From Bordetella parapertussis (lineage in GTDB: Bacteria > Pseudomonadota > Gammaproteobacteria > Burkholderiales > SG8-39): a stretch of 32,000 bases of DNA. Each line of letters starts with the position of its first letter. Position 1 is the first letter of the stretch. The notes below the pieces were generated by a model. The model was not told the DNA's origin. It saw nothing but the letters and a program-made list of their open reading frames with translations, and made no database searches. The stretch spans positions 16,344-48,343 of the forward strand of contig CAMAXP010000033.1 in the NCBI GenBank assembly GCA_945862265.1. The letters are read 5' to 3'. Below are positions 4,122 through 30,329 of this stretch, one piece after another. The position numbers and the translations under genes are program-made.

Positions 4122-4122
<1 letters not shown>

Positions 4123-7413: not shown

Positions 7414-7421
7414 CCCGGCGC

Positions 7422-9677: not shown

Positions 9678-9746
9678 TGGTTGGCAGCAATTTGACTGGA
9701 GATCGGCTCCAGACGTGGGGTTGGTCGGCAAAGTGGCAGCAATTGG

Positions 9747-12326: not shown

Positions 12327-13318
12327 TTTTTTGCCGCCGCGCTGGCGCGAGCCTTTTCCTTCTCGAATGCCGTGGCCGTGAACGACTGGCCGCTGTCCTG
12401 CGCCACCTTGCGGATGATCTCCCAGTCCTTCCTGTAATCGATCGGCAGCCACCGGTCGGCGCCCTGGAAGCTCTTCACCATCTCGGGCGTATAGCGAAAG
12501 GCGTAGCTGCATTCGCGGATCTTCTGCTGCAGGGCCGGCGCGAGGTCGTGCGCCATCGACAGGCCGCCGGGCGGGAAACTGCGGCTCTTCCAGAGGATGC
12601 GGAAGTCGGACATTTTCACGAGCCCGCGCTCGGCCATGCGCACGAGGATGTCGTGCGCGATCGGGGCGGCGTCGAAGTCGCCCGCGGCCACGCCGGACAC
12701 CGAGTTCTCGTGCTTGCCCGAGAACAGCACCTTGTAGTCCTTGTCCGGCACCAGGCCCTCGGCCAGGAAGAGCGAGCGCGGCGCGAGGTTGCCGGAGTTG
12801 GAAGAGGGCGTGGTATGTGCGACGCGCTTGCCCTTGAGGTCGGAGAGCTTCTGGAACGGGCTGTCGGCCCTGACGATCATCCAGAGCTGGTAGCCCTGCG
12901 GGCCGTTTGCATCGCCCCGGATGCCGATCGGGATCGCACCGGCAACGTTGACTGCGAAGGCCGTGTCCCCGGACGACATCGTGCCCACGTGCATGCGCCC
13001 GGAACGCATCGCCTCGATCGCCGCCGCGCTGGAGAACACTTCGTAGTAGCGGAACTTGCGCGCCGTGCACTTGGCCAGGTGCTCGACGAAGGGCTCCATG
13101 AGTTTCCTGAACACCGCCGGGTCTTCGAGCGGCGAGTTGGAGAAGAACAACGTATCCGGGTCCTTGCGTCGCTTCGGGTCCTTGGGCGCGTCGGCCAGCA
13201 GGTCGCCGTCCTCGTCGCAGTAGGGCGTATCGAGTTCGCCGCGCTGCTTGCAGGCGTCCTGTGCGAGCGCCGGAAAGGCGAGTGCGAAGGCGGTGGCGAG
13301 AACCAGGGCGCGGATCAA
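12323..13318 (-). CDS. PhnD-family periplasmic substrate-binding protein, paralogue 1
   Basis: Signal peptide [19 protein letters not shown] and a PhnD-like anion-binding block [14 protein letters not shown]. The TTG start overlaps the upstream stop (TTGA). Confidence 0.82.
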
Positions 13319-14352
13319 GGCTTCTTCGCCTTGTCTTCGGCGGCTTTCCTCTTCGCGTCTTCTTCGCGCTTCGATTCCTTCTCGTAGGCGGTGCGATTGA
13401 AGGCTTCACCGCCGGTTTCGGCGACCTTGCGCACCACCTCCCAGTCCTTCTTGTAGGTTGCCGGGAAGAACCGGTCCGCGCCGTCGAAGGCCTTTTTCAT
13501 TTCCTCGGTGAAACGGTAGTCGTAGAAGCACTTCAGCATCTTGTCGCGGAAGACCGGCTCGAGGTCATGTGCATACGAAAAGGACGAAGTCGGAAACTTG
13601 GGGCTCCGGTAGAGGATGCGGAACTTGTTCTCGTCGATCTGGCCGCGCACGCCCATGCGGTGAAACACGTCGGAGGCCACCGCGGCCGCGTCGTAGTCGC
13701 CGGAATTCACCCCCAATATCGACTGGTCGTGCTTGCCGGAGAACAGGATGGTGTAGTCCTTGCCCGGGGCGAGGCCCTCGTTCGGGAATAGCGCGACGGG
13801 CGCCATGTGGCCGGAGTTGGAGGAGGGCGCGGTATGCGCGACTTTCTTTCCCTTGAGGTCGGAGAGTTTCTGGAACGGGCTGTCCTTCTTCACCACCACG
13901 ATCAGGTTGTAACCCTGGAACTCTTTTTCGTAGCCCTTGACCGCGAACGGCACCGCCCCGGCGATGTTCACCGCAAACGCGGTCGGGCCGGTCGAGAACC
14001 CGCCCACGTGCAGGCGTCCGGATCGCATGGCCTCGATCTCGGCCGCGTTCGACTGCACCTGGTAGAACACCACGCGCTTGCCGGTGCAGCTGGCGAGGTG
14101 GTCGGTGAAGGGCTTGAACACCTTTTCGTAGACCGCTGGGTCTTCCACGGGCGTGTAGGTAAAGACCAGCGTGTTCGGGGTCTTCAGCTTCTTCGAGTCT
14201 TTCGGCGTGTCGGCGACCAGGTCGCCGTTTTCGTCGCAGTACTGCGGATCGAGGTCGCCGCGATTCTTGCAGGCGTCCTGGGCGAGCGCGCCTGCGGAAA
14301 ACAGCGTGGCTGCAACGGCCCAGAGGCCGGACTTCAGCAATGTGCGTTTCAT
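13315..14352 (-). CDS. PhnD-family periplasmic substrate-binding protein, paralogue 2
   Basis: The start [24 protein letters not shown] (ATG at 14352) is preceded by AAAGGGA. It contains the block [14 protein letters not shown]. The ORF-track extension to 14571 overlaps paralogue 3 and is rejected. Confidence 0.85.
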
Positions 14353-14375
14353 GTCGCGTCCCTTTATGCCAACGG

Positions 14376-15383
14376 TCACTTCTTCTTCGCGCGGGCAGCC
14401 TCTTCCGCAGCACGTTCCTTGTCGAATCCGGTGCGGTTGTAAGGCGTCCCGGAATCCTCGGCGACCTTGCGCACCAACGCCCAGTCGTCCTTGTAGCTGA
14501 CCGGCAGGAACCGGTCGTCGCCCAGGAACTCTTTCTTCATTTCCGGGCTGAATCGATAGTCGAAGAAGCACTTGCGCACCCGCTCGGCGAGTTGCGGTTC
14601 CAGGTCGTGCGAGTGCGCGAAGGCCGAGGTCGGGAAGTGCCTGCTCTTGTAGATGATCCGCAGGTCGCCATCCTTGATGATGCCGCGGTTGATGAAGCGG
14701 TCGTAGATGTCGGAGGTGATCGGCGCGGCGTCGTAGTCGCCGTTGACCACGCCCATCAGCGACTGGTCGTGCTTGCCCGAATACAGCACCTTGTAGTCCT
14801 TGTCCGGCACCAGGCCCTCTGCCGGGAAGAGCGCGCGGGGCGCGAGGTTGCCGGAATTCGAGGAAGGCGCGGTGTGCGCCACCTTCTTGCCCTTGAGGTC
14901 GGCCAGCTTGTGAAACGGGCTGTCCTTCTTCACGATCACTACCTGGGTGTAAGTACGCGGTCCGGACTGGTCGCCCTTGATCGCGAACGGCACCGCCCCG
15001 GCGAGGTTCACCGCAAAGCCCACCTGCCCGCTGGCGAGGCCCGTCACGTGCAACCTCCCGGCGCGCATGGCTTCGATCTGGGCGGCGTTCGACTGCACCG
15101 TGAAGTACACGACTTTCTTGCCGGTGCAGCCGGCGAGGTGGTCCTGGAAGGGCTTGAACAGGTTCTGGTAGACCGCCGGATCCTCGATCGGGGTGTAGGC
15201 AAACACGAGGGTGGACGGGTTCTTCAGCCGCTTCACGTCCTTTGGGACGTCGGCGACGAGGTCCTTGTTTTCGTCGCAGTAGCTCGCGTCGAGTTCGCCG
15301 CGGGCCTTGCAGTCCTCCTGCGCGTGCGCGCCCGGGACAAATAGCAATATGGACGCCACCAGCGCGGTCCGGATCGGATCCAT
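14376..15383 (-). CDS. PhnD-family periplasmic substrate-binding protein, paralogue 3 (first gene of the operon)
   Basis: Signal peptide MDPIRTALVASILLFVPGAHA and block [14 protein letters not shown]. It is collinear with paralogues 1 and 2 over its full length. Confidence 0.85.
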   Translation of the reverse strand: MDPIRTALVASILLFVPGAHAQEDCKARGELDASYCDENKDLVADVPKDVKRLKNPSTLVFAYTPIEDPAVYQNLFKPFQDHLAGCTGKKVVYFTVQSNAAQIEAMRAGRLHVTGLASGQVGFAVNLAGAVPFAIKGDQSGPRTYTQVVIVKKDSPFHKLADLKGKKVAHTAPSSNSGNLAPRALFPAEGLVPDKDYKVLYSGKHDQSLMGVVNGDYDAAPITSDIYDRFINRGIIKDGDLRIIYKSRHFPTSAFAHSHDLEPQLAERVRKCFFDYRFSPEMKKEFLGDDRFLPVSYKDDWALVRKVAEDSGTPYNRTGFDKERAAEEAARAKKK

Positions 15384-15403
15384 GTCTTCCCCGAGGAATT
15401 GTT

Positions 15404-15460
15404 ACAGGCTTGTGGCAGTCAGTTTACCGGCAGGGGCCGGGGCCCAGCAAGCCTGTTTTC
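15404..15460. promoter_or_regulatory. Two-tier hairpin in the phnD/glmU divergent intergenic region
   Basis: Perfect 9-bp inverted repeat ACAGGCTTG (15404-15412) / CAAGCCTGT (15448-15456) followed by TTTT. An inner stem CCGGC (15427-15431) / GCCGG (15436-15440) lies within it. On the minus strand the structure falls in the 5' leader of the phn-type operon. Confidence 0.3.
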
Positions 15461-15531
15461 CGGCAATCTTTCAAAGGGTTCTGGCGGTTCCTGCAAGCAT
15501 TGCACGGAAGGGCGGATGTTAGAATCGCGGC

Positions 15532-16896
15532 ATGAAACTGAATGTCATCGTGCTGGCCGCGGGCCAGGGCAAGCGCATGCATTCGGACCTGCCCAAGGTC
15601 CTGCATCCGCTGGCCGGGCGGTCGCTGCTCGGCAGGGTCATTGACACCGCGCGCTCGCTTGCGGCCGCGAAGATCGTCGTCGTCTACGGTCATGGGGGAG
15701 CGCTGGTGCGCGAGGCCTTTGCGGGCGACACCGATATCGCGTGGGCCGAGCAGAAGGCGCAGCTGGGCACGGGGCACGCCGTGATGCAGGCGTTGCCGCT
15801 GGTCGATCCCGATGCCCATGTCCTCGTGCTCTATGGCGATGTGCCGCTGATTCGTGCCGACTCGTTGCGTGCCCTGGTCGAGGCTTCGCAGGGCGGCCTC
15901 GGCGTGATGACGGCCGTGGTGCCGGACGCGACCGGCTACGGCCGCATCGTCCGCGACGCCGGGGGCCGCATGCTGCGCATCGTCGAGCACAAGGACGCGA
16001 CCGAGGCGGAGCGCGCGATCCGCGAGTGGAATACCGGCTTCCTCGCCACCAGTACGGCGCGACTGTCGGGGTGGCTTTCGCGCGTGAAGAACGAGAACGC
16101 GCAGAAGGAGTACTACCTCACCGACGTGATCGCCCTCGCGGTGGCCGACGGCATCGCCGTGCAGACCACCCAGCCCGCGCAGGTCTGGGAAGTCGAAGGC
16201 GTGAATTCCAAGCGCCAGCTGGCCGAACTTGAGCGCGTGCACCAGCGCGAAGTCGCCAACACCTTGCTGGAGCAGGGCGTGACCCTGGCGGACCCGGCGC
16301 GCTTCGATGTGCGCGGCACGCTCGCCTGCGGCCGGGACGTGGCAATCGATGTGAACTGCGTTTTCGAAGGGTTGGTGAAACTGGGCGACCGCGTGCGGAT
16401 CGGCCCGAATTGCGTGCTGAAGAATGTCACGATCGATGTCGATACCCAGGTCAACGCGTTTTCGCTGCTCGAGGATGCCACCGTCGGCGCCGACTGCCGC
16501 ATCGGCCCCTATGCGCGCCTGCGCCCCGGCGCCGCGCTGTCCGACGAGGTGCATATCGGCAACTTCGTCGAGGTCAAGAACAGCAGGATCGGCAAGGGGT
16601 CGAAATCGAACCACCTCGCCTATGTGGGCGACAGTGACGTGGGCAGCAAGGTCAATATCGGCGCCGGCACCATCACCTGCAATTACGACGGCGTGAACAA
16701 GCACCGCACGGTGATCGGGGACGGCGTGTTCGTCGGATCCAATGCCACGCTGGTGGCGCCGGTCACGATCGCCGAGGGCTCCTACATCGGCGCCGGATCC
16801 ACCATCAGCAAGGACACGCCGCCCGGGCAGCTCACGCTCGCGCGCGCAAAGCAGATCTCCATTCCGGCCTGGAAGCCGCCAAAGAAGAAGGGGTAA
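15532..16896 (+). CDS. glmU: Bifunctional UDP-N-acetylglucosamine pyrophosphorylase / glucosamine-1-phosphate N-acetyltransferase
   Basis: 454 aa. [16 protein letters not shown] nucleotidyltransferase N-terminus and a C-terminal left-handed beta-helix with hexapeptide repeats ([46 protein letters not shown]). Confidence 0.97.
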
Positions 16897-16900
16897 GACC

Positions 16901-18727
<1,827 letters not shown>

Positions 18728-18798
18728 GTCTGCTAGTCAGTAATTTTGACTCTGCAACAGCACTTCACTGCACTTTTAGGCTGACCACTAAGGCGCTG

Positions 18799-19041
18799 TT
18801 GGTCAGTCGATACAGCGCGTATCAGCAGCAGCTACTAAAGCGAGTTACTGAGCTAAGGCTTGGTCGTGGACTATCGTTTCTGAGAATTGCGAAGACGCTT
18901 AGGGAAGAAGGCGTTCTGTCGAGCAAGGGGTTGGTGCTGTCAGCGCAGCACGTTTACTCGATATTCAAGAAGGGAACGTCGAGAAAGCGTAGATTGGCTA
19001 CAAAGGCGAAGGCGAGACTTGTGCAGCTAGATGTACGATAA
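18799..19041 (+). CDS. Small ORF resembling the HTH part of a serine-recombinase 'recombinase' domain; possibly a 5'-truncated remnant
   Basis: LLKRVTELRLGRGLSFLRIAKTLREEGVLSSKGLVLSAQHVYSIFKKG has the same residue pattern as WVKRIFKEIIKKTSIANIKQLLEANGVLPRRKGLWSLGSINALISN in the 30330 recombinase. Only a TTG start is available, and the frame stays open upstream across the glmS junction. Confidence 0.3.
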   Translation: MVSRYSAYQQQLLKRVTELRLGRGLSFLRIAKTLREEGVLSSKGLVLSAQHVYSIFKKGTSRKRRLATKAKARLVQLDVR

Positions 19042-19127
19042 GGCATTGACACTCAGACGCTAGCTAGAAATGCGCAAACTTGCGTATTGAAAAACACGCG
19101 TCCGCTTAACAACGCAGTGGAGAAATA

Positions 19128-20033
19128 ATGGCAAAAAAATCGAAGTCTGAAAATGATCTCGCTTCCACTGACGATGCGTCTAAAGATGTACCAAGCTACG
19201 ACGAACTAATCTTTCCCACGATCAAGGCACTAAACGCTTTAGGTGGGTCTGGAACGATCGAAGAAATCGTTAATAAAGTGATCGGACTAGAAAACATATC
19301 CCAAACTGCTGCAACTGCAATGCACTTGAATCACAGCATGACTGCACTTGAATATCGATTGGCTTGGGCGCGTACATATCTAAAGCGCGTGGGCGCAGTA
19401 GACAACAGCACGCGTGGAATTTGGACAGTTACGGAAGTAGGAAAGAACTACACGCAAGATGATTGCGCCAAAGTTCCTGGCGAAGTAAGAAAGCAAGACA
19501 AACTCGCTCGCGAAGCAAAGAATGCAACTAAAAGCGAAAACGATAGTGAAGCAGATGAAAACGGCAACGGAGTTCTAGATTGGAAAGAAGAACTACTCAG
19601 CGCCCTTCGCAAAATAACTCCTGATGCATTCGAGCGTCTATCTCAGAGATTGTTACGTGAAGCGGGATTTACGAAAGTTGAGGTCAAAGGAAAGAGCGGT
19701 GATGGTGGAATCGATGGAATTGGAATCCTTCGCGTAAATCTTGTTTCGTTCACGATTCTTTTTCAATGCAAACGATATAAAGGCAGCGTTTCCGCTGGAG
19801 CAGTGCGCGACTTTCGTGGCGCAATGCAAGGACGTTGCGACAAAGGATTAATCGTAACAACTGGAACGTTTACTGCTGACGCAAAGAACGAGGCAACGCG
19901 CGATGGTGCACCAGCCATTGATCTAATTGATGGCGAAAGCTTATGCGATCTGTTGAAGCAATTGCGACTAGGGGTAGAAGTAAAAGCAGTGGAGTCAGTG
20001 ATAATCAATTCAAAGTGGTTTGAGTCGATATAG
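19128..20033 (+). CDS. mrr: Mrr-family (type IV, modification-dependent) restriction endonuclease
   Basis: 301 aa. N-terminal Mrr winged-helix block (PSYDELIFPTIKALNALGGSGTIEEIVNKV) and a C-terminal Mrr catalytic core (FERLSQRLLREAGF...GKSGDGGIDGIG...LFQCKRYKGSVSAGAVRDFRGAM...GLIVTTGTFTADA). SD GGAGA lies upstream. Confidence 0.85.
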   Translation: MAKKSKSENDLASTDDASKDVPSYDELIFPTIKALNALGGSGTIEEIVNKVIGLENISQTAATAMHLNHSMTALEYRLAWARTYLKRVGAVDNSTRGIWTVTEVGKNYTQDDCAKVPGEVRKQDKLAREAKNATKSENDSEADENGNGVLDWKEELLSALRKITPDAFERLSQRLLREAGFTKVEVKGKSGDGGIDGIGILRVNLVSFTILFQCKRYKGSVSAGAVRDFRGAMQGRCDKGLIVTTGTFTADAKNEATRDGAPAIDLIDGESLCDLLKQLRLGVEVKAVESVIINSKWFESI

Positions 20034-20160
20034 CGTCGATATGCTTGAACGCTTTTATCTGAGCCATCTGCAAGGCGAGATGAACGTAGTGGCGCTGCAA
20101 TCGCAGAAGCACAAGAAGAAGACGAGTGCAAAAAATAAGGAAAAGAAAGTAGCGAGAAGC

Positions 20161-20196
20161 AAAAAAGAGAGAGCGCCTACGTAGCACTCTCTCTCA
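20161..20196 (-). terminator. Rho-independent terminator for the minus-strand AAA+ operon
   Basis: The minus strand reads GAGAGAGTGC-tacgtag-GCGCTCTCTC followed by TTTTTT (9 of 10 stem pairs). Confidence 0.65.
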
Positions 20197-20198
20197 CT

Positions 20199-20219
20199 TG
20201 TCGTTCAAAACGACATTCT
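20199..20219. repeat. Palindromic repeat copy 1 (TGTCG-TTCAAAA-CGACATTCT)
   Basis: It shares the core TGTCGTTCAAAACGACAT with the copies at 22611 and 22645. It lies 3 nt past the AAA+ gene stop. The stem here is shorter (7 bp). Confidence 0.8.
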
Positions 20220-20222
20220 CGA

Positions 20223-20873
20223 TCAAGCAGTTTTCGCAAACGACTCAGCGCGCACTCGCTTCGCCATATCTCTATAACTGCCATTCGATCTCCTAGCTAG
20301 CGCGATAAGCTCATTGTCTGTTGCGTTAGTCCAAGATGAATCGTTAGCCACGCCACGCACATAAGAAAGACACGCTGCCAATGGTGGTGCGTTCATTTCA
20401 AGCACATGAGAGCGATCTTTAATCGCGTCGTTTACCTCAGTAATGAAGTTCGTGGTTAACACAAAACACACGTAATTTTTGTTCATCGCTGATTGAAGAG
20501 AACGTTGTGCACTCTTAGAGAGATTGTTAACTTCATCAAGCACGACAAAGCTAAGCCCACTCGGACTGAATGGCGAGTTCAACGCTAGCTTTTGGACCAG
20601 AGCGACTTGCGCTTCGCCTTCCTTGCCTTGCTTGCATGGGAACACGCTCTTAAACGAGCCACCACCACCATAAGCTTGATCAATAAGCTCGGGCAATAGC
20701 GTCGCAAGCGTCGTCTTGCCCGTGCCATATGAGCCATATAGCAAAATTCCAGTCGTTCCACTTTCTGGAAATGGCATCGTACGATTGACAATCGCGTTAA
20801 GAATCTTCGCAGTCTTAGAGCTACTGAATGAAAAGTCATTAAGACTTGTAGGAGTAAAAGTAATTTGAGACAT
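20223..20873 (-). CDS. Truncated RFC/clamp-loader-like AAA+ ATPase (216 aa)
   Basis: Walker A GILLYGSYGTGKTTLA, Walker B FVVLDEVNNL, an RFC-box-like SKSAQRSLQSAMNK, and sensor-1 / SRC-like CFVLTTNFITEVNDAIKDRSHVLEM. There is no C-terminal collar domain. SD AAGGAA lies upstream. Confidence 0.75.
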   Translation of the reverse strand: MSQITFTPTSLNDFSFSSSKTAKILNAIVNRTMPFPESGTTGILLYGSYGTGKTTLATLLPELIDQAYGGGGSFKSVFPCKQGKEGEAQVALVQKLALNSPFSPSGLSFVVLDEVNNLSKSAQRSLQSAMNKNYVCFVLTTNFITEVNDAIKDRSHVLEMNAPPLAACLSYVRGVANDSSWTNATDNELIALARRSNGSYRDMAKRVRAESFAKTA

Positions 20874-20933
20874 ATAAATTCCTTGATTGAAGTAGCGTGA
20901 TACAGCGTGAGCTGTACCACGTGTAGCTTTTAA

Positions 20934-21734
20934 TTAAGCAGACGCAGCAGCAGAATTGCCGAGCGACGATTCGTTGTGATAAGCGATTAGCGCAGCCTTG
21001 ATCGCAGTCTTGTTCTTGACGACGCCATGAATTTCGAATTCGCCACTAGCGCGCATTACAAGAATCGCGAGCAACGCTTGATCGTAGTCAGTGACATCAA
21101 TGCGTTTTGAAACTTCTTCATCGCGAATAGATGTCAACGCAACTGCTGTCTGAATCGCAGTGCGAGCGCGTTCAGCACGATCAACAGGAGATAGCGAATT
21201 TGGCGTTTTGGAACGACGGAGTTCTTGCACGCCACCATGCTTTTCAATGAATGCTGCGAGATCATCGACAGCAATCTTCTTGTCGAGAGCGCAACGCAGA
21301 GCCAAGCTGTAAGTGCTGATGCGACTTCGATCAATGCTCTGCGTGTCATCGAAGAAGACGCACTTGACGACCTTGACGATGCCATGAGTGCCACTCTTGC
21401 ACTTGATTGCGTTTGTCTCGCAGAACGTCTTGAGTTCAGCGCGAAGAGCCTTAGCTGAGTCATTGCTCTGACCCATTGCGTGATAGAACGCATAGCACTG
21501 CGAGAGAATTCCATATAGCTGCTGATTGCTCGTGCGATACGCGTTAGTCTCCCAATGCTTACGCTCTTGAACGATAGTGCTGAGCTTAACTGCTGCCCCA
21601 ACAGCCTCTGTGAGCGACGCATGACCTTCTAGGTCGTAAGTGAGCTTCACTGAGACGTTGGTGGGGACAGTCACGCTAGGAATATTCTCTTGAGCGACTG
21701 CGTTGCTAACTGCTTCTTTAATTGCGACTTTCAT
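20934..21734 (-). CDS. Hypothetical protein (266 aa, apparently helical), first gene of the AAA+ operon
   Basis: Clean ORF with SD AAAGGAAA and coding-like composition. I recognise no family motif. Confidence 0.6.
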   Translation of the reverse strand: MKVAIKEAVSNAVAQENIPSVTVPTNVSVKLTYDLEGHASLTEAVGAAVKLSTIVQERKHWETNAYRTSNQQLYGILSQCYAFYHAMGQSNDSAKALRAELKTFCETNAIKCKSGTHGIVKVVKCVFFDDTQSIDRSRISTYSLALRCALDKKIAVDDLAAFIEKHGGVQELRRSKTPNSLSPVDRAERARTAIQTAVALTSIRDEEVSKRIDVTDYDQALLAILVMRASGEFEIHGVVKNKTAIKAALIAYHNESSLGNSAAASA

Positions 21735-21825
21735 GGTATTTCCTTTCTAAATGTGTCTGATGCGGTATTGATCAGATCACATGTACATTCTATAGACGTA
21801 TGACTGTATTTCCCATTTCCATCTA

Positions 21826-22602
21826 ATGGAGACTATTAAGGTGATAAGAAAAATAGAACAAAAAAGGGCTAGAAAATTCAAAGGAGTCACCCCACGCTTT
21901 GGAATGAAGAAGAACCCACGCCCTCTCAAAGATCAGCAAGTCAGTCCCTACTATTGGTGGTGGGCGTATCTGAAGAGAAGCAAGCAATACATCGCGTGCT
22001 GTAAGCGTGGTGGGAGGGGAAAGCTCGAAAAGCTTTACGCTGACTTTGGAGATGTCAGAGGCGATGACTTCAAAGCGTGGTGGACTGAAGGAGAGCGAGG
22101 TCGCGAGCTATTCGCTGAGCAGCAGTCAGTTCATGGCGTGATCGAGCTGAAGAGCAAAGACGAATGGCTAGATGAGTGGCGTAGCGATTCGACGTTGATC
22201 GTCGCCATACCCCTAGAATGGAGCAAGCGCTACTTGCAGAAACGACTGCTCGCGTTGCTAAGAAAGAGACACACGAGAGGACCAGGTCGTCTCGCGCTGA
22301 AGGGACGAGAGACAAGCGATGCGCGATACCCTCTAGCGCGAAACTTCAATGTGAACAGTCTGAAGACCGATCTTGCTGTGTACGACGCTATAGAAGCGAG
22401 CAAGAAGGCTGACGAAAAGAAGACGTACTACGAAATGGGAGTTGAGCTAAAGCTTGTTCGTACTGCACTGCCCACAGCACTAGATATCAAAATGAAGAAG
22501 CGTGATGCAGATAAAGCAAACTCGATGACTGTGGCAGTCAGCAGATCGTATACGAGGGCAAAGACAGTAGTCGAGAACGTGGGGAAGGGCGTTTTCCCCT
22601 AG
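21826..22602 (+). CDS. Hypothetical basic Trp-rich protein (258 aa), divergent from the AAA+ operon
   Basis: Distinctive N-terminal block SPYYWWWAYLKRSKQYIACCKRGGRGKLEKLYADFGDVRGDDFKAWW, and the protein ends in GKGVFP. No SD is obvious, so the start is uncertain (a GTG at 21841 is an alternative). Confidence 0.55.
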   Translation: METIKVIRKIEQKRARKFKGVTPRFGMKKNPRPLKDQQVSPYYWWWAYLKRSKQYIACCKRGGRGKLEKLYADFGDVRGDDFKAWWTEGERGRELFAEQQSVHGVIELKSKDEWLDEWRSDSTLIVAIPLEWSKRYLQKRLLALLRKRHTRGPGRLALKGRETSDARYPLARNFNVNSLKTDLAVYDAIEASKKADEKKTYYEMGVELKLVRTALPTALDIKMKKRDADKANSMTVAVSRSYTRAKTVVENVGKGVFP

Positions 22603-22610
22603 ATCCGCTC

Positions 22611-22635
22611 AAGATGTCGTTCAAAACGACATCTT
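22611..22635. repeat. Palindromic repeat copy 2 (AAGATGTCGTT-CAA-AACGACATCTT)
   Basis: Perfect 11-bp arms. The outer arm bases differ from copy 3 by compensatory changes on both sides. Confidence 0.8.
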
Positions 22636-22644
22636 TGGAGGGCG

Positions 22645-22669
22645 AGAATGTCGTTCAAAACGACATTCT
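22645..22669. repeat. Palindromic repeat copy 3 (AGAATGTCGTT-CAA-AACGACATTCT)
   Basis: Perfect 11-bp arms. It lies 9 nt from copy 2 and 13 nt from the 3' end of the tyrosine recombinase gene. Confidence 0.8.
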
Positions 22670-22682
22670 GAGGTGACGTGGA

Positions 22683-23282
22683 CTAGATCATCTCGACTGT
22701 GGTGCGCAGCATTGCAGGATTGAGATCGATGTATCGCTGAGTTGTAGCCAAATTTTTGTGCCCTGCCAATTCCATTAGCACGCGCACATTCGCGCCTTTG
22801 CTCGCAAGCAATGTGATAAAACTGCGGCGCCCACTGTGCGAGCTAGCTCCTACGATTCCAGCCCTCTTGTAGATGTAGTGCATAAGCTGTGCTGCTGTAT
22901 TTGGCGTAAAGCCACGATCTGGATGCTTCTGAGTACAGAAAAGCGCCCTAGTTGTGTCAGTCATAGTGACTGCTTTCAAATCCTTCAGCTTGAAGCGCGC
23001 TGACAGATACGCATGAAGCTCTTCTTGCAAGCGCTTCGGCAGAAGAACAGTCCGAGCACGATCACCTTTCGTCTGACTTGCAGAAAGTCTGATTTCGTCA
23101 AGAATCGACCCATCTGAATTCAGTACATCGCACAGACGCAGCGATGCGACCTCTCCAATTCGCATTCCTGCGAGATGTGTGGACAGAAACATCGCTTTGT
23201 TACGCGCACCGTGTTTGTGAGCAGCCATGTAGAGCAGAACACGACGCACCTCTTTCTCGTTCAGAACCTTCGCTTGTGACAT
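22683..23282 (-). CDS. Minimal tyrosine recombinase (catalytic domain only, FimB/FimE-sized)
   Basis: 199 aa. Catalytic pattern is R in LAGMRIGE, H-x-x-R in HSGRRSF, and GHKNLATTQRY with the terminal Tyr. There is no N-terminal core-binding domain. SD AGGAGA lies upstream. Confidence 0.85.
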   Translation of the reverse strand: MSQAKVLNEKEVRRVLLYMAAHKHGARNKAMFLSTHLAGMRIGEVASLRLCDVLNSDGSILDEIRLSASQTKGDRARTVLLPKRLQEELHAYLSARFKLKDLKAVTMTDTTRALFCTQKHPDRGFTPNTAAQLMHYIYKRAGIVGASSHSGRRSFITLLASKGANVRVLMELAGHKNLATTQRYIDLNPAMLRTTVEMI

Positions 23283-24407
23283 TTAGATCTCCTAGTAATC
23301 AAAGACTTGCTATGTATTTAGTGTGAACCCTTTGATTCGATCGGAGAAGCCTCAAGGCGAAAAATATGTTCCTTCCGTTTATCAATGGCTTACAGATATA
23401 CCAAATATATTATGTAGGAGCTTTGGTATTCAGCTCGAATCGCGCTGAGACGAATCCACATCTGAATTGATCTCAGACTACAGATCCACGCGTTGCGTTG
23501 GTCCTGTGCGGTCCTGAGCAGTTCTAGGGCGCAGCGTGATTGCTCGCAAGTCAGTCGATCTGAAGTGCAGATGCAAATAGTTCTTGGGTAGGGCAGAACG
23601 GAGTAGCTGACTTCGACTTGAGCCCATAGCTCTGTGCAGAATTAAATGCTTTTTCTACTACAGCGTTCATCATTCTTGAACTGAGCGCTTCGCACTCAGT
23701 AGCTGCTGCGAAAACTACGTTTTCTTGCAGCTTTCTTTTCAATCATTCTTTCCTAGACTCGGAATCTATGGGTTTGTAATTGGCTGAAACTATGTGTCTT
23801 AGAACTTCTTACCCCATTTGCAAGATTCGACCCACACTGAGCCTTAAGCAACAAGGCCCAATAAGTGGAAGATTTATTTGCTGAGTTCTTACCACGAGCA
23901 CTTCAGCACAACCTCAAGTAGAACAAGGTGAAGGGCAGTTTCGCTATCTCCTTTTACGTGCTGCTGATGAAACGCAACTATCTTGCAGTAGCCGAAGTGC
24001 CAACCACTGCAAAGTCGCAAGTTGCTGTGTGAGCATTTCTTGCTTATGACGCACAGCTGTACAAGCTGTCATCTTCGCGCCTAGATATTTCCCCTTGCAT
24101 CAGTTCGATGGCGATCTCGAACAGCGTCCAATACTGCAGATAGTGATTGCAAGTCTTCGCCACTACTCGAAGTTTCCATCCCTGTGAACATCAATGACCA
24201 GGTCTAGGGCATCAAATCAACTGCGTGATGCGGCGCGTTTATTAGTGGAAAGCAATGGCGCCCAACTGATGATCTAGTCTGCGTCACAGTTATTTATGCC
24301 TAACCAAAGAGAAGGAATAAAAAAGCAAAGCTATTTGGCGATGAACGGATAGGAATGAATTGGGCATGGCAATACAGTGAATGCACTCAAACAAAAGGAG
24401 ATTGACC

Positions 24408-24848
24408 ATGAGTGCATTGAATAGCTTGAAGCTTGTCGCAGCAGTACGTATCAACGTGATGTCGCCTGTCCAATTTCGCAGAAACAAGCTCGCTGCGAAG
24501 CTCGCAGATCAAATCGAACTAGCTAAGGCGATGAAAGAGGGCAAGACGTACGTGGCTACACGAGTGCGTAACGTGAAGGATCGAATCACGGGCGAAGTGA
24601 CGAGCGTCGAGCAGACGCGTAAAGTGCGTCCGTGGTGGTTTCGTGCTGAGAGCGGTAAGACTTGCGTTCAGCTCAAATACGGAACAAAAGTACTCGACTT
24701 CGCTAAGGGCAAGAATTCAGTTGAAGTCGCTAACGAGACTGAGTTGATCTCAGTCTTGGAGACGCTGAAGAAAGCATGCGAAATGGGCGAGCTTGACGCT
24801 CAGATGGCTACTGCGAGTGAGGCAGTGAAGGATCGATTTAATAAGTAA
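24408..24848 (+). CDS. Hypothetical protein (146 aa) heading the type III R-M gene block
   Basis: The ATG at 24408 follows SD AAGGAG (24395-24400) and begins MSALNSLKLVAAVR. It contains RKVRPWWFRAESGKTCVQLKYG and MGELDAQ. It resembles a conserved proteobacterial family of unknown function that I cannot name with confidence. Confidence 0.65.
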   Translation: MSALNSLKLVAAVRINVMSPVQFRRNKLAAKLADQIELAKAMKEGKTYVATRVRNVKDRITGEVTSVEQTRKVRPWWFRAESGKTCVQLKYGTKVLDFAKGKNSVEVANETELISVLETLKKACEMGELDAQMATASEAVKDRFNK

Positions 24849-24915
24849 AGTTTGCCAGAACTAATCCGTTGTCGAAGCACTGTTCATACATAAAAATGAT
24901 CGAGGAGCTAAAAGA

Positions 24916-24942
24916 ATGAGCAACCTAAGGACTAAAGAATGA
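24916..24942 (+). CDS. 8-codon leader mini-ORF (MSNLRTKE) coupled to the mod start
   Basis: Strong SD GAGGAG (24902-24907) lies 8 nt before the ATG at 24916. Its TGA (24940-24942) overlaps the mod ATG (24939-24941). mod itself has no SD. Confidence 0.3.
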   Translation: MSNLRTKE

Positions 24943-27083
24943 AGCTCACAGACAACGAAATACGTGACATTACTAAACTTCTAGAGGAGGGTAAGACTCT
25001 TCCTGATAAGTACCGCTTTATGTTGTTCGGAGACGAGCGGGAAATTGAACTCGTATGGAATGGAAAGTCTCAAGAAGTCACTAATGTAGTTATGCCCTTC
25101 CAGACTATTGAGCATGTTGATGAGCCTAGAGCTGAAGTTGACATGCGTATCCAACCAGAACTTTTTGACTTGGAAACTGGGCGACAACTGAAAGGTTGGA
25201 CAAATAAACTGATTTGGGGTGACAACAAGTTTGTATTGTCTTCGCTTAAGAGTGGTCCACTTCGTGATGAGATTGAAGCAAATGGTGGAATCAAATTAAT
25301 CTATATTGATCCACCATTTGATGTTGGTGCTGATTTCACGATGGAAGTCGAAATCGGTGATGAAAAGCTTTCAAAAGAGCCCAATGTATTAGAGGAAATA
25401 GCCTATAGAGATACATGGGGCAAAGGTACTGATTCATTTCTTTCAATGATTTATGAGCGCCTAATATTAATGCGAGATTTATTAGCAAAAGACGGAAGCA
25501 TTTATGTTCATTGCGACTGGCGTGTTACAGCAGTAATGCGACAAGTTCTCGATGAAGTTTTTGGACAATCTAATTTGATAAATGAAATAATATGGTATTT
25601 CAGCCAGGGCGGAAAAGGGACATCATATTTTGGTAAAAAACATAACACTATTTGGTTGTACGGAAAGAATGAAAATCCATTTTTCAATGAAAGTGCAGTT
25701 AGATTACCATTTACACCGCATAAACAAGATTCTTCAGGGAAAAATTATGGTGGCAGGATGGGAGCTGACGAAAATGGAAGGCAGTATGTCGAAAAATGGG
25801 GAACGGGGAAAAAGAAATTATATCGATACTATTTGGATGAGGGCAAGCTACCTGAAGATGTATGGACAGATATTCAATCAATACAATCTGCAGCCATTGA
25901 AAGAGTTGACTACCCAACACAAAAGCCTGAACCTCTTCTAGAGAGAATTATCAAGGCGAGCAGCAATCAAGGTGATTTGGTGGCTGATTTTTTCTGCGGA
26001 AGTGGAACTACTGCGGCTGTAGCAGAAAAGTTGGGAAGAAAATGGATTACATCAGACTTGGGAAAGTTCTCAATTCATACGGCTAGAAAGCGATTGATAA
26101 ATGTCCAAAGAGAGCTAAAAGCCGAGGCTAAAGATTTCCGTGCATTTGAAATTCTTAACCTTGGCAAATATGAACGGCAATTCTTCGTTTCTGGCTTGGA
26201 TGACCTTGATGCAAAGTCAAATTCTCAAATTGAACGAAACAAAGAACTTGCTTTCAACACTCTGATTCTCAATGCATACAAAGCAGAGCCTGTCTCGGGA
26301 TTTAGAACTTTTCGTGGCAAAAAGCAGAACCGAATTGTCGCTATTGGTCCAGTAAATTTGCCAGTCTCAAGACTCTTCGCAGAGCAAGTAGTCGCCGAAT
26401 GTGTCGAGAAGGGGGTAACGAAGGTTGACTTGGTTGCTTTTGAATTCGAGATGGGACTGTTCCCAAGCATTCAGGATGATGCTTCCTCTAGAGGGGTCGA
26501 CTTAGTTCTGAAGCACATTCCAAAAGAAGTCTTTGACAAGAGAGCAATAGATAGAGGTGAAGCACGGTTTCACGATGTTGCATACATTGAAGTCAAGGCG
26601 CATTTCAACGGTCTATCACTCGCAGTCGAACTAACAAATTACTCAGTCTTTTATACACAGGGAATCACCTCCATCACTGAAGAAAATCTCAAAAACGGTG
26701 GTAGTCAAGTTGTAGTTGAAAACGGGCAAGTCATAAAAATCAGCAAAGACAAAGACGGCTTGGTCAACAAGCGTGAACTGCTTACGAAGAATTGGCACGA
26801 CTGGATTGACTACTGGTCAATCGATTTCGACTTCACCAATCGAAAAGAGACTGTTCGCATCAAGGACAAGAAGACTGGTGAAGACAAGGACACTTGGACA
26901 GGCGATTTCATATTTGAAAATGAATGGCAATCTTTCAGAACTCGGCAAGACCGAACAATTGAGTTGAAGTCAATTTTCAAAGAACTACCCCCAGGCAAGC
27001 GCAAAGTCGCAATCAAAGTCGTTGACATTTTTGGCAATGACACGATGAAAGTCATTACAGTCACTATTGGGGAGAAGCGGTAA
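24939..27083 (+). CDS. mod: Type III restriction-modification methyltransferase (beta-class N6A/N4C MTase)
   Basis: 714 aa. Motif IV LIYIDPPFDVG (aa 121-130) precedes YPTQKPEPLLERII and motif I ADFFCGSGTTAAVAEKLGRKWI (aa 349-370). The stop overlaps the res start. Confidence 0.88.
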   Translation: MKLTDNEIRDITKLLEEGKTLPDKYRFMLFGDEREIELVWNGKSQEVTNVVMPFQTIEHVDEPRAEVDMRIQPELFDLETGRQLKGWTNKLIWGDNKFVLSSLKSGPLRDEIEANGGIKLIYIDPPFDVGADFTMEVEIGDEKLSKEPNVLEEIAYRDTWGKGTDSFLSMIYERLILMRDLLAKDGSIYVHCDWRVTAVMRQVLDEVFGQSNLINEIIWYFSQGGKGTSYFGKKHNTIWLYGKNENPFFNESAVRLPFTPHKQDSSGKNYGGRMGADENGRQYVEKWGTGKKKLYRYYLDEGKLPEDVWTDIQSIQSAAIERVDYPTQKPEPLLERIIKASSNQGDLVADFFCGSGTTAAVAEKLGRKWITSDLGKFSIHTARKRLINVQRELKAEAKDFRAFEILNLGKYERQFFVSGLDDLDAKSNSQIERNKELAFNTLILNAYKAEPVSGFRTFRGKKQNRIVAIGPVNLPVSRLFAEQVVAECVEKGVTKVDLVAFEFEMGLFPSIQDDASSRGVDLVLKHIPKEVFDKRAIDRGEARFHDVAYIEVKAHFNGLSLAVELTNYSVFYTQGITSITEENLKNGGSQVVVENGQVIKISKDKDGLVNKRELLTKNWHDWIDYWSIDFDFTNRKETVRIKDKKTGEDKDTWTGDFIFENEWQSFRTRQDRTIELKSIFKELPPGKRKVAIKVVDIFGNDTMKVITVTIGEKR

Positions 27084-29794
27084 TGGCAATTCATCCGAAC
27101 TTTCCCCTGTCTCCTCACGAAATTCTCACCCCAGATGTGAGATGGTTTCCAGCAGATGAATCGTTGCGTGAGTCTTCATTTGAAAAATTGCTCCCTCCGC
27201 TTGTGCATGAATTACGTAGGCGTGTCTTTGACTGGAGAAATAGAAATTACGAAGGTGTCAGCGCAACAACAAAGTCATTACTGACATGGTGGTTTGACAC
27301 TTCTCATCCGATGCCACAAGCGGACGGAACAATTGGTAATTTCCAATACTACTTTGCACAAAGAGAGTCAGTTGAAACAGTCATCTTCTTGCATGAAATC
27401 ATTCAAGTAGCAGACAAGCAAGATTTGCTTCGATTTGATACTAGAGGTGTTGTAACTCCAAGACTCATAGAAGAGACTTGGAGAAGGTATGTCATCAAGA
27501 TGGCAACTGGTAGTGGCAAAACAAAAACAATGAGTTTGCTACTCGCTTGGTCGTTCTTCCACAAGAAGTATGAAGAAGGTTCAGACCTTTCTAAAAACTT
27601 CTTGTTAATTACTCCAAACATCATTGTTCTTGACAGGATTAGAAAAGACTTTGATGGGCTTAAGATTTTTGAAGAAGATCCAGTCGTACCAGACAACGGA
27701 TTTGATGGTAGAGAATGGAAGTCAGACTTTCAATTGACACTTCACATTCAAGATGAAGTTGGACCAATCTCACCTACAGGGAACATTTTTCTTACGAATA
27801 TTCATCGTGTCTACGACGATAAAAGCGTTCTTCCAACTGAGAATGACGAAAATAGTATGGACTATTATTTTGGTAACAAGCCAAAAGGAAAAACAAACGA
27901 CTCATCGGTAGACTTAGGAAAAATAATTCGTGATATCGATGAACTGGTTGTAATCAACGATGAAGCCCATCACATCCACGATAGTAAGCTGGCGTGGTTC
28001 AAGTCTATTGGTGACATTCATAACAAGTTGAAACAAAAAGGGTCACAACTATCGTTACAAATTGACGTTACAGCAACTCCTAAACACTCTAATGGAGCAA
28101 TATTTGTTCAGACAATTGCTGACTACCCACTCGTAGAGGCGATTCGCCAAAACGTAGTTAAGCATCCTGTCTTACCTGATCCACCAAGTCGAGCCAAGTT
28201 AAATGAAAAGCAGAGTTCGGTTTATACAGAGAAGTATTCTGATTACATCAATCTAGGGGTGACTGAGTGGCGTAAGGTTTATCCAGAGCATGAAAAGCTC
28301 GGGAAGAAAGCTGTGCTGTTCATCATGACGGACGACACAAAGAACTGCGATGCTGTTGCGGAATACCTTGAGCAGACATTTCCTGAACTGAAAGGTGCTG
28401 TCCTAACGATTCACACTAATAAAAATGGTGAAATTGACGATAACCCTTCGTCTAAAGCATCAAAAGAGGAATTAACTTTGCTCAGAGATCAAGCAAACAA
28501 GATTGATTCCTTCTCCAGCCCATACAAAGCAGTAGTGTCAGTTCTCATGCTTAAGGAGGGTTGGGACGTTAGAAATGTTACGACCATTGTTGGACTTCGA
28601 GCATTTGCTTCTCAAGCAAAGATCCTTCCTGAACAAACGCTTGGTCGAGGTCTTAGGAGAATGTATCCAAGTTCAGAAGCCGAAGAATATGTGAGTGTGG
28701 TTGGTACGCAAGCATTCATGGACTTTGTTGAAACAATTCAAACAGAGGGCGTTGAACTTGAGAAGCGTCCGATGGGTGCTGGTACTAAAGCAATAGGTCC
28801 CATGATTATTGAGGTCGACGACGCAGATGATGACAAAGATTTAGACGAACTAGACATTGAGATTCCAGTTCTTTCGCCACGTAGCATACGAGAGTACAAG
28901 AATCTTGATGAACTTGACCTAGACACATTTGAGTTTGAGGTCTGTGAGTATCGTGAATTCACTGAAGAAGAGCAGCGACAGATTGTCTTTAGAGACATAA
29001 CAACAAATGAAATAACTCACACAACAATGCTGGAAGGCGCATTTGCTAGTGATTATCGAAGCGTAATTGGACACTTTGCCCAAGCTGTCTTGAAAGACTT
29101 GCGACTCTATGCGGCTTACGACCTGCTTTACCCAAAGATTCAAGAATTTGTAGAGTACAAGTTATTTGGTCAAAAAGTTACCTTAGAAGACGCCAACACT
29201 ATTCGAAATCTTTCAGAGCCTAACGCATCAAGAGCAATTTTCGATGTGTTTAAAAAAGCTATCAATAATTTGACTGTCCGTGATGTTGGTAACGCAGAGA
29301 TAAGAGACACGATCAAGATTAGAAACATGCGTCCTTTTGTTGTTAAGGATCAGAAGAATCTTCCAGCAAAGAAGTCTGTCTTCAACAAGATTGTTGGTGA
29401 TAGTGTTCTTGAACTTCGCTTCGCGCAGTTCTTAGAAAAGTGCCCAGACGTTGTTTCTTACGCCAAGAACTACTTCGCATTGAACTTCAAGATTGACTAT
29501 GTCGATGCGACTGGGAATATTGCAAACTACTATCCTGACTTTATTGTTAAATTGTCTGGAACTGAAGTCTATGTAATTGAAACTAAGGGTCTCGAAGACT
29601 TAGATGATCCATTGAAAGTCAGGCGCTTAAAACAGTGGTGTGAAGATGTCAACGCGACTCACAGTAACGTCAAGTTTGACTTTGTATATGTTGATCAGGA
29701 CGCGTTTGACATGTTTACAGAAGAGGGTGGTAAGTTGAAAGGGCAACTTAACTCATTCTCTGACTTGGTTAAATTTTTCACTGCTTACAAGTAG
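27083..29794 (+). CDS. res: Type III restriction enzyme Res subunit (SF2 helicase plus C-terminal PD-(D/E)xK nuclease)
   Basis: 903 aa. Walker A KMATGSGKTKT, DEAH box VINDEAHHIH, helicase C-terminal block MLKEGWDVRNVTTIVGLR, and nuclease motif YYPDFIVKL...VYVIETKG. The start overlaps the mod stop as TAATG, and SD GGGGAG lies upstream. Confidence 0.9.
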   Translation: MAIHPNFPLSPHEILTPDVRWFPADESLRESSFEKLLPPLVHELRRRVFDWRNRNYEGVSATTKSLLTWWFDTSHPMPQADGTIGNFQYYFAQRESVETVIFLHEIIQVADKQDLLRFDTRGVVTPRLIEETWRRYVIKMATGSGKTKTMSLLLAWSFFHKKYEEGSDLSKNFLLITPNIIVLDRIRKDFDGLKIFEEDPVVPDNGFDGREWKSDFQLTLHIQDEVGPISPTGNIFLTNIHRVYDDKSVLPTENDENSMDYYFGNKPKGKTNDSSVDLGKIIRDIDELVVINDEAHHIHDSKLAWFKSIGDIHNKLKQKGSQLSLQIDVTATPKHSNGAIFVQTIADYPLVEAIRQNVVKHPVLPDPPSRAKLNEKQSSVYTEKYSDYINLGVTEWRKVYPEHEKLGKKAVLFIMTDDTKNCDAVAEYLEQTFPELKGAVLTIHTNKNGEIDDNPSSKASKEELTLLRDQANKIDSFSSPYKAVVSVLMLKEGWDVRNVTTIVGLRAFASQAKILPEQTLGRGLRRMYPSSEAEEYVSVVGTQAFMDFVETIQTEGVELEKRPMGAGTKAIGPMIIEVDDADDDKDLDELDIEIPVLSPRSIREYKNLDELDLDTFEFEVCEYREFTEEEQRQIVFRDITTNEITHTTMLEGAFASDYRSVIGHFAQAVLKDLRLYAAYDLLYPKIQEFVEYKLFGQKVTLEDANTIRNLSEPNASRAIFDVFKKAINNLTVRDVGNAEIRDTIKIRNMRPFVVKDQKNLPAKKSVFNKIVGDSVLELRFAQFLEKCPDVVSYAKNYFALNFKIDYVDATGNIANYYPDFIVKLSGTEVYVIETKGLEDLDDPLKVRRLKQWCEDVNATHSNVKFDFVYVDQDAFDMFTEEGGKLKGQLNSFSDLVKFFTAYK

Positions 29795-29861
29795 CGTATT
29801 AATTATTAAAAATGCAAATCATCTGAAAGAGAGAAATAAAGAAAGAAAGCTAAATACTCAC

Positions 29862-30221
29862 ATGCGAATCGACGAAGTAGCGGGACTGAAGACTTTCATT
29901 GCAACGGTGAGGGTCAAGAATGGCTCAAACGTAACAACGACTAAGACACCAATTCAAGCAGATGGGCAGATGCAAGCTCGTGCCATCATGACGCGCATCT
30001 TTGGGGAAGGAAACGTGCTTGCAGTGCTTGAGACTTCTCAGATCGCTGAGATGGAAGGAGGCACGAAGACGCTATCTGCAGCGGAATTGCGCGTTAAGTC
30101 TCTTGCTGACCAAGCAAAAAAACTTCAGGCGCAAAAAAAGCAAGAGGTCGCAAGGCAGTCATTGGACAAGGCACAGAAGAGAATGGCTGCGGCAAATCGT
30201 CCAAAGAAAACCGCACTGTAA
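29862..30221 (+). CDS. Hypothetical protein (119 aa) with a Lys/Gln-rich C-terminal tail
   Basis: ORF between res and the serine recombinase. It has no clear SD. N-terminal block KTFIATVRVKNGSNVTTTKTPIQADGQMQARAIMTRIFGEGNV is followed by a charged helix-like tail. Confidence 0.4.
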   Translation: MRIDEVAGLKTFIATVRVKNGSNVTTTKTPIQADGQMQARAIMTRIFGEGNVLAVLETSQIAEMEGGTKTLSAAELRVKSLADQAKKLQAQKKQEVARQSLDKAQKRMAAANRPKKTAL

Positions 30222-30329
30222 GCGCCATTTTCCATAGCAGGAGGCTAGGAAAAGAACGTCTTCGGCTATACAGTTGCACTCAGTCGAACTTCATTTTCTT
30301 CGTTGAACTGAGTAACTATAAAAGTATAG

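Follow-up and report, generated by a model that had tools for sequence, protein, structure and literature searches.

Several described systems place short symmetric or recombination-type sequences at the ends of bacterial genes. In integrons, the attC sites are dyad elements which lie directly past, and sometimes overlap, the stop codon of a gene; compensatory changes keep their symmetry, and they are linked to a platform encoding a tyrosine recombinase and form site-gene-site units in different contexts. The pdif modules of Acinetobacter plasmids carry many copies of a short recombination-type site between gene modules in varied orientations and contexts. Repetitive extragenic palindromic (REP) sequences and bacterial interspersed mosaic elements (BIMEs) are short conserved palindromes, mostly at gene 3' ends, often in tandem and between stop codon and terminator, with several classes per genome, REP sequences being spread through the core genome of the host and having a cognate RAYT transposase, and in the FimB/FimE invertase switches a tyrosine recombinase of about 200 amino acids (aa) without an N-terminal core-binding domain is found beside inverted sequences. 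Here we describe a family of 17-bp palindromes which shares features with each of these systems and which was recognized through three copies in a 32,000-nt window of contig CAMAXP010000033.1, the whole stretch of DNA that was analysed. The motif family seen through these three copies is real and new. Coordinates are positions within the window unless they follow an L-number, which denotes one of the related loci compared with it.

The 17-mer TGTCGTTCAAAACGACA occurs exactly three times on the plus strand of the window, at 20199-20215, 22615-22631 and 22649-22665. With 0.01 copies expected by chance and three copies reached in 0 of 100 shuffles, the three copies of a core motif reported by an earlier, sequence-only reading of this DNA are genuine. 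All of them fall in a low-GC island downstream of glmS, with none in 18.7 kb of host DNA, and they bracket the genes of a 216-aa AAA+ ATPase, a 266-aa protein and a 258-aa protein. Copy 1 (20199-20215) is located between the stop codon of the AAA+ gene (20223) and the intrinsic terminator of its operon; what it has in common with the other copies is limited to the 17-mer and the right flank ATTCT, and the left flank is unpaired. Copy 2, AAGATGTCGTTCAAAACGACATCTT (22611-22635), begins 9 nt past the stop codon of the 258-aa gene, and copy 3, AGAATGTCGTTCAAAACGACATTCT (22645-22669), ends 13 nt from the stop codon of a tyrosine recombinase gene, so that the placement of the sites around a three-gene module was described correctly. 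Copy 2 and copy 3 each extend to a palindrome of 25 nt, whose 11-bp arms match perfectly on either side of the 3-nt centre CAA, and, as first noticed by the same reading, the outer arm bases of the two copies differ by compensatory changes (AAGAT/ATCTT in copy 2, AGAAT/ATTCT in copy 3).

The window motif is one base off the family consensus TGTCGTTTWAAACGACA, a 17-bp dyad of the layout T-GTCGTTT-W-AAACGAC-A. In 1.18 Mb of related loci this consensus is present in 43 perfect copies (0.0003 expected) and, with up to three mismatches, in 163 copies (about 5 expected); an enlarged set of about 200 related loci contains 200 perfect copies. All 17 positions are conserved, the 'spacer' or loop as much as the arms or stem, and the flanks are almost without information. 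The half-site outside palindromes is not enriched (38 versus 60 +/- 27), which gives no support to a unit resembling uptake sequences, and the dyad is therefore the functional unit. The suggestion that symmetry, and not just sequence, is preserved by selection extends to the whole family: 48 of 105 two-mismatch sites are mirror-complementary, compared with about 2.3 expected. Symmetric variants are found at many stem positions, and several variant classes coexist within one genome. In L081, an identical symmetric G/C change is present in eight of eight sites, a concerted variant which fits a spread of the sites by copying or recombination. Searches of a paper library for the RNA motif of these islands (see below), for DUF6641 and for Polynucleobacter genomic islands turned up no earlier description of the 17-bp motif or of DUF6641. 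The motif family is new and widespread, and in the islands of mainly freshwater Betaproteobacteria it is a mark of the ends of genes and modules.

The genes bracketed by the sites belong to a conserved assembly. Relatives of the 258-aa protein number more than 400, all without annotation, and the gene is found in 77 loci from named genomes, mostly of Polynucleobacter, Limnohabitans, Methylophilaceae and other Burkholderiales, with some Rhodobacteraceae. In most of these loci it stands beside homologues of the AAA+, 266-aa, recombinase and DUF6641 genes. The shared island core comprises a 424-aa integrase, the AAA+, 266-aa and 258-aa proteins, a tyrosine recombinase consisting of the catalytic domain only, a non-coding stretch of about 1 kb and DUF6641. 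The layout that recurs among relatives has one site past the AAA+ gene and one or two past the 258-aa gene, beside the small tyrosine recombinase; in canonical islands, the 424-aa tyrosine integrase gene and the AAA+ gene converge, and a site separates the two. The closest relatives, L084, L086 and L001, encode 258-aa proteins 73-88% identical to that of the window. L084 keeps all three sites, and L086 and L001, whose contigs begin at the 258-aa gene, keep the tandem pair; copy 2 retains the same outer arms in all three. The centres of their sites differ from those of the window or are flipped, and the arms of copy 3 hold a reverse-complemented centre in L086 and L084. Among annotated plasmids and phages, three Bradyrhizobium plasmids were the only matches and no phage was found. 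As a separate observation, the recombinase gene of L086 (894-1418), whose product is 96% identical to that of the window, is truncated at residue 26 by unrelated hydrolase genes, and the 3' end of a recombinase gene is found once more where this contig ends (5616-5853).

Many further copies came to light in the related islands, as had been proposed for a search, together with different cargo filling the slot beside the recombinase. The sites are confined to low-GC islands in high-GC hosts and are enriched near the core; about half of the site-bearing contigs of at least 8 kb hold no recombinase or core gene. A motif-first scan of Joint Genome Institute (JGI) metagenomes gave at least 120 site-bearing stretches; among those listed, a core gene is present in 44 of 120 stretches and, when contigs of at least 8 kb are taken alone, in 12 of 26 (37-46%), a link to the core far above that of a genome-wide repeat. 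The remaining stretches listed carry accessory-type genes (chromate transporter, NifQ, Na+/H+ antiporter). The motif is strongly linked to islands, yet often lies kilobases from any recombinase.

Within the islands, the position of the sites relative to genes is distinctive. They are intergenic in 66% of cases, as compared with 25% of random positions, and 34% lie inside open reading frames (ORFs); 40% are located at most 40 nt from a stop codon (8% of random positions), and 3.7% are found near start codons (8% random). The recurrent places are directly past the AAA+ stop codon, about 45-60 nt downstream of the start of the 266-aa ORF (a place without a site in the clade of the window), at or overlapping the 258-aa stop codon beside the recombinase 3' end, directly past the DUF6641 stop codon, and at the ends of cargo genes. 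The motif is present in 5-12 copies per island, at most gene ends, and tandem pairs occur, including copies 2 and 3 of the window. The bidirectional intrinsic terminators that the sequence-only reading had named as its less exciting alternative would account for the location of each window copy between convergent gene ends and for their ability to fold, the region of the copy 2/3 pair reaching -37 kcal/mol (z = -4.4). We nevertheless rejected this explanation as very improbable: the sites have a T-run on neither strand and are not called by a terminator scan, one third of them lie inside ORFs, and a separate canonical terminator of the 266-aa/AAA+ operon, with a 13-bp stem followed by a T-run, stands immediately distal to copy 1 (minus strand, 20195 to 20165). 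The same order of stop codon, palindrome and canonical terminator is found in nine relatives (L007, L014, L015, L016, L024, L036, L081, L082 and L083); in these and in L084, an equivalent of copy 1 follows the AAA+ stop codon.

The same positional data bear on a second alternative, in which the palindromes are REP-like RNA hairpins of the 3' untranslated region, transcribed between the stop codon and the true terminator. Such hairpins could stabilize or insulate convergent transcripts, or be bound or processed by an island-encoded RNA-binding protein, and module boundaries would coincide with them merely via gene ends. We consider this possible, if rather unlikely. The bias towards stop codons and the depletion near start codons agree with it, as do the placement ahead of canonical terminators in the window and nine relatives and the tandem pairs, which are also seen in REP clusters; indeed, the sites are multi-copy, largely extragenic, concentrated at 3' ends and often paired, as REP sequences are. 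The mirror changes at many stem positions and the coexisting variant classes fit base pairing better than they fit a single dimeric protein, and where just one gene end precedes the site, the sense strand shows an excess of G.U over A.C pairs (26 versus 13), a marginal hint of selection at the RNA level. Gene ends alone, moreover, explain most of the breakpoint enrichment discussed below. However, the canonical stem is weak for an RNA hairpin (6-7 bp, 3 of them G-C), the loop bases are conserved equally with the stem, and the sites inside ORFs include a conserved position in the 5' end of the 266-aa gene. In contrast to REP sequences and BIMEs, the sites occur across many genera and are confined to horizontally acquired islands in high-GC hosts, with strong enrichment around the recombinase core, and they have no GTAG-type head.

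Our leading hypothesis, held tentatively and at somewhat less than even chances, is that the palindromes are module-junction or recombination sites of this island family. As 17-bp dyad-symmetric elements able to form hairpins or cruciforms, they would mark the ends of genes and gene modules, and modules would be exchanged, inverted or captured at them by site-specific recombination. The tyrosine recombinases of the island itself would be the obvious candidate enzymes, and the AAA+/266-aa/258-aa block would be one such module, in the slot beside the small recombinase. Several comparisons point in this direction. The block of recombinase, non-coding stretch and DUF6641 stands on either side of the AAA+/266-aa/258-aa block, the two thus being relatively inverted (39 loci versus 11), and a site is present at the junction in the inspected examples of both arrangements (L167, L028). 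In L189, L120 and L152, the recombinase and integrase genes are 92-94% identical and the cargo between them is unrelated; on the recombinase side, similarity is lost 3 nt after the site, at a distance of 170 nt from the stop codon. Between L015 and L082, a nucleotide identity of 60-70% gives way to background at the site that lies within the 266-aa gene, at its 5' end, and protein phylogenies are incongruent across this breakpoint. Furthermore, three site-gene-site units are common to otherwise unrelated contexts, and six Polynucleobacter loci become homologous at a copy upstream of their tmRNA gene (see below). The abundance of the motif, its confinement to the islands, its link to the core and its conserved positions, all described above, also favour this hypothesis.

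These results partly support the mechanism that the sequence-only reading had offered, in which three directional core sites excise a single cassette. The bracketing layout is conserved, the module occurs in both orientations and alternative cargo occupies its slot; the three sites, however, are not a private unit of one cassette, given the abundance of the motif at most gene ends of each island and also inside ORFs. A number of observations weigh against recombination at the palindromes. After control for gene 3' ends, the excess of breakpoints near sites is small (141 versus 116 +/- 7.6), and for pairs of at least 92% identity, a site was close to only 4 of the 52 breakpoints. Contigs with an identical recombinase or 258-aa protein have only the arrangement of the window, and no excision or inversion junctions were found in them. 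Metagenome contig ends show no enrichment of sites (6 observed versus 5.7 expected within 100 nt), and for this reason no weight is given to the identical ends of L001-L003. Several islands that bear the recombinase have no canonical site (L018, L031, L033, L040, L045), inserts adjoining a site occur without a second flanking site (a 110-aa ORF in L010-L012; inserts of 230-470 nt), and the G.U pairs mentioned above belong on the same side. The ORF of about 110 aa lies between the palindrome following the 258-aa gene and the recombinase gene, and was located in L010 (3080-3430), L011 (10790-11130), L012 (7260-7600) and L027 (2420-2770).

The architecture of the site itself raises a further difficulty. 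The sequence-only reading had divided the window sites into 9-bp arms and an asymmetric 7-bp centre that gives them direction, as in the core sites of tyrosine recombinases. This division did not hold up. The arm symmetry continues into the proposed 7-bp centre (TT..AA), and therefore the sole asymmetry of the window sites is one C.A position, a single substitution relative to the family consensus TTTWAAA; because arms of 11 bp surround a 3-nt centre, the 9+7 layout is merely one possible parsing. When tested as a core of the Cre/Flp/Xer type, in which a strand-exchange region of 6-8 bp separates two inverted recombinase-binding arms, the element can formally be read as TGTCG-N7-CGACA, but the site is short, with 17 bp only conserved, and each position of the 'spacer' is conserved equally with the arms. 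The directional asymmetric centre which this type requires is missing, TTTWAAA being symmetric save for one base pair, and the orientation of the central base relative to the neighbouring genes is near random (8 A and 6 T for the AAA+ gene, 10 and 11 for the recombinase gene). That all centres point the same way is correct for the window, where all three read TTCAAAA, but fails in L086 and L084, where the recombinase-proximal centre is the reverse complement TTTTGAA. Partner sites also differ from one another: L084 has the centres TTGAAAA, TCCAAAA and TTTTGAA, and those of L086 are likewise non-identical. Ordinary tyrosine recombinases would not tolerate differing centres in the region of strand exchange.

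In a further alternative, the palindromes are bound as duplex DNA by a dimeric protein which the island encodes; the 266-aa or the 258-aa protein, together with the AAA+ ATPase, is a possible candidate. Sites of this kind would act as roadblocks, as insulators or as a multi-site regulatory or partition-like array, for which the KorB or ParB operators scattered over IncP plasmids offer a comparison. The perfect dyad with its uninformative flanks, the lack of enrichment of the half-site alone and the multiple copies per island agree with this explanation, and the conserved copy about 45-60 nt into the 266-aa ORF could be an autoregulatory roadblock. L015 and L082, moreover, share the TGT/ACA variant of the site, and each is the closest relative of the other in its AAA+ and 266-aa proteins, which does not apply to the recombinase and the 258-aa protein. 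With two informative loci only, tracking which protein follows the site variants was set aside as too weak to use. We regard the explanation as unlikely: operators do not usually show a strong 3'-end bias or avoid promoters and start codons, symmetric variants at many positions exist beside canonical sites in one genome, none of the core proteins gave a match to a DNA-binding fold or family, and the concerted change of the eight L081 sites would be hard to achieve via point mutation.

Returning to the recombination hypothesis, a comparison of the window with L084, a second glmS island with the same ends, gives the only rearrangement that was mapped to the nucleotide, and its breakpoints do not coincide with the palindromes, which counts against them as the points of exchange. 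The two islands carry the entire segment from the AAA+ gene through the non-coding stretch in opposite orientations (window 20199-24309, L084 738-4890), with breakpoints at GCCNAACCAAAG, an asymmetric 12-mer. This 12-mer is present in inverted orientation at both L084 junctions (739, minus strand; 5602, plus strand) and once in the window, at 24298. There, the element GCCTAACCAAAG (24298-24309, plus strand) lies within the motif TATTTAG-CNAAACCWAAT, which is conserved about 130 nt upstream of the DUF6641 gene in most relatives. No second copy of the 12-mer exists in the window, and the longer surrounding motif is essentially single-copy per locus. The 12-mer motif upstream of DUF6641 may be the true target of the recombinase. 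Among pairs at least 78% identical, no recent inversions were found except for the unrelated case of L018 and L031. The case for the palindromes as recombination sites is, on these comparisons of sequences, circumstantial. A 20-nt inverted repeat (18 of 20 positions matching) also brackets the recombinase gene and the non-coding stretch of the window (22673-22692 and 24268-24287); one arm overlaps the recombinase stop codon beside copy 3, the other lies 10 nt from the 12-mer, and conservation of the repeat is poorer in L001 and L084.

The candidate enzyme beside the sites is the 199-aa tyrosine recombinase (22683-23282, minus strand). It matches PF00589 with 88.4 bits (cut-off 27.1) and aligns to residues 103-273 of XerA with the catalytic residues R-K-H-R-H-Y in place; only the catalytic domain of XerA/XerD is matched and there is no N-terminal core-binding domain, in agreement with its earlier description as a minimal recombinase. 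Although the overall arrangement recalls integrons, the enzyme has no IntI-specific insertion and scores 48.8 bits against the integron-integrase cut-off of 265. The sites differ from attC as well, being 17-25 bp long and near invariant, as opposed to 57-141 bp and defined by structure; attC sites are imperfect palindromes with R''-L''/L'-R' boxes which an IntI integrase recombines as folded single-stranded DNA. The present sites are perfect dyads with no bulges, extrahelical bases or R/L box layout; in addition, flanking genes point both ways, and no attI site or Pc promoter is evident. The FimB/FimE switches share with these islands the small recombinase beside inverted sequences and the inversion of segments between relatives, but the match to invertase models is weak (30.6 bits versus a cut-off of 222), the elements are palindromes and not a pair of 9-bp inverted repeats around a promoter, and no phase-variable promoter segment was identified. 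The pdif sites, for their part, measure 28 bp, combine two different arms with a 6-bp spacer and are served by XerC/XerD, the Xer enzymes of the host; here, a symmetric 17-mer occurs in other hosts alongside island-encoded candidate enzymes.

A more specific proposal, which we put forward as doubtful, is that of a new system of module capture and shuffling. The catalytic-domain-only tyrosine recombinase would act on the 17-bp gene-end hairpins, perhaps together with the 424-aa integrase, the AAA+, 266-aa and 258-aa proteins and the Polynucleobacter-1 RNA described below, and the system would be integron-like in effect, bringing together genes of defence and accessory function. Should the palindromes be recombination junctions, the gain and reshuffling of restriction-modification and other accessory genes in the islands of Polynucleobacter, Limnohabitans, Methylophilaceae and their relatives would find an explanation, and a compact recombination system of a 17-bp site and a 199-aa enzyme would be defined. 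The bacteria in whose flexible genome such a shuffling system would act include some that rank among the most abundant in fresh water. Even if its role lies at the RNA level or in regulation, the motif is a usable metagenome marker for the island family. The conserved unit also ties together four protein families of unknown function.

The island carrying the three sites follows 65% G+C chromosomal DNA (bases 1-18727) that ends with glmS. Directly downstream, it extends from 18730 to 32000 with a G+C content of 40-51%, and its right boundary lies beyond the window end. It opens with an 80-aa ORF (18799-19041, plus strand), followed by the gene of an Mrr-type nuclease (19128-20033, plus strand) and a 54-codon ORF (20020-20184, plus strand), which occupies the place of the 3' end of the 424-aa tyrosine integrase gene of canonical islands. 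This ORF may be a remnant of the integrase gene, as judged from its position; the resemblance to the 424-aa integrase (SVDMLERFY versus SAAMIERHY) is statistically not significant. A relationship to the HI_0787-like gene of L084 was rejected, the two being unrelated. On the far side of the core, a type III restriction-modification system (24939-29794), a 119-aa ORF (29862-30221) and the gene of a large serine recombinase of the CcrB/XisF-like type (30330 to the window end) all lie on the plus strand. The pair of 80-aa ORF and serine recombinase gene is also present in L084 (359-600 and 10076-11770) and L037; in L084, no further island gene separates the serine recombinase gene from the chromosome, which suggests that the serine recombinase integrates the island as a whole next to glmS.

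Restriction-modification systems or Mrr-type nucleases adjoin the core in most islands examined (the window, L004, L005, L013, L038 and L084), with type I, type IIL (MmeI-like), type II (BamHI-like) and type III systems among them, and the core therefore travels with defence cargo. In freshwater Methylophilaceae, flexible islands resembling Tycheposons have been described, in which a tyrosine recombinase lies beside glmS or the transfer-messenger RNA (tmRNA) gene and which are bounded by tRNA repeats, with no mention of a palindromic motif (PMC10872708). They share with the present islands their variability, the tyrosine recombinase next to glmS or tmRNA and the genome-streamlined freshwater betaproteobacterial hosts; the window island differs in having a large serine recombinase gene near the window end and in that the palindromes are internal.

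Within the core, the AAA+ ATPase (20223-20873, minus strand) is of the clamp-loader or RFC-small-subunit type. The 266-aa gene (20934-21734, minus strand) is always found upstream of it, and the 258-aa gene (21826-22602, plus strand) encodes an all-alpha protein with the invariant motif SPYYWWW..Y..CC. Neither protein has a family or fold match. Pfam, NCBIfam, PHROGs and PADLOC gave no match for the 80-aa, 266-aa and 258-aa proteins; one of 20 relatives of the 258-aa protein weakly matches Trans_reg_dom. The structural model of the 258-aa protein (predicted local distance difference test, pLDDT, 85) has no match in PDB or BFVD, and that of the 266-aa protein (pLDDT 66) none in PDB; sequence searches of PDB were likewise without a match. 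The DUF6641 gene (24381-24848, plus strand) is the last of the conserved core and is followed in relatives by a palindrome of the same family.

The non-coding stretch of 1.1 kb (23283-24380) contains a Polynucleobacter-1 RNA (RF01718; 24096-24236, minus strand; 83.8 bits versus a gathering score of 37), a candidate RNA of a 2010 survey from Burkholderiales and fresh water or estuary samples (PMC2864571), which is the only paper mentioning this RNA among the literature searched. Further matches are found in L001 (2377-2516), L007 (12427-12562) and L084 (808-951), always between the recombinase and DUF6641 genes, upstream of the recombinase gene and in the same orientation. At the gathering threshold, five other family members (L004, L005, L014, L016, L063) have no match, and the RNA is thus present in the clade of the window and in L007 without extending to all relatives tested. 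The islands provide the first genomic context for an RNA that has been without known function since 2010. A second conserved element of the non-coding stretch is the hairpin ACTGAGCCTTAAGCAACAGGCTCAGT (L007 12193-12218), which is present as the same 26-mer in L008-L011, L013, L030, L035 and L040, many of these loci being distantly related, and only partly preserved in the window, at about 23833-23860.

Other palindromes and placements were noted in the course of the comparison. In six Polynucleobacter loci, a perfect palindrome of the 17-bp family lies just upstream of the tmRNA gene (L013 970, L024 8883, L028 16555, L009 3401, L030 956, L063 16224); the upstream sequence varies between these genomes, and homology starts exactly at the palindrome. 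A partial repeat of the tmRNA 3' end at about 20321 of L028 is a mark of island integration. Further palindrome families, among them AAGCGTC-N7-9-GACGCTT, TGTCCTTTWAAAGGACA and GTCGATTTAAGCGAC, are located at gene ends of these islands (L013 857-905 and 1324-1396; L016 1748, 3131 and 16948; L011 13151; L019 1237). In the window itself, the serine recombinase gene contains a palindrome of 23 nt, ATTGTCCACGTATCGTGGACAAT (31084-31106), whose perfect arms are 10 bp long and whose sequence is unrelated to the 17-bp motif.

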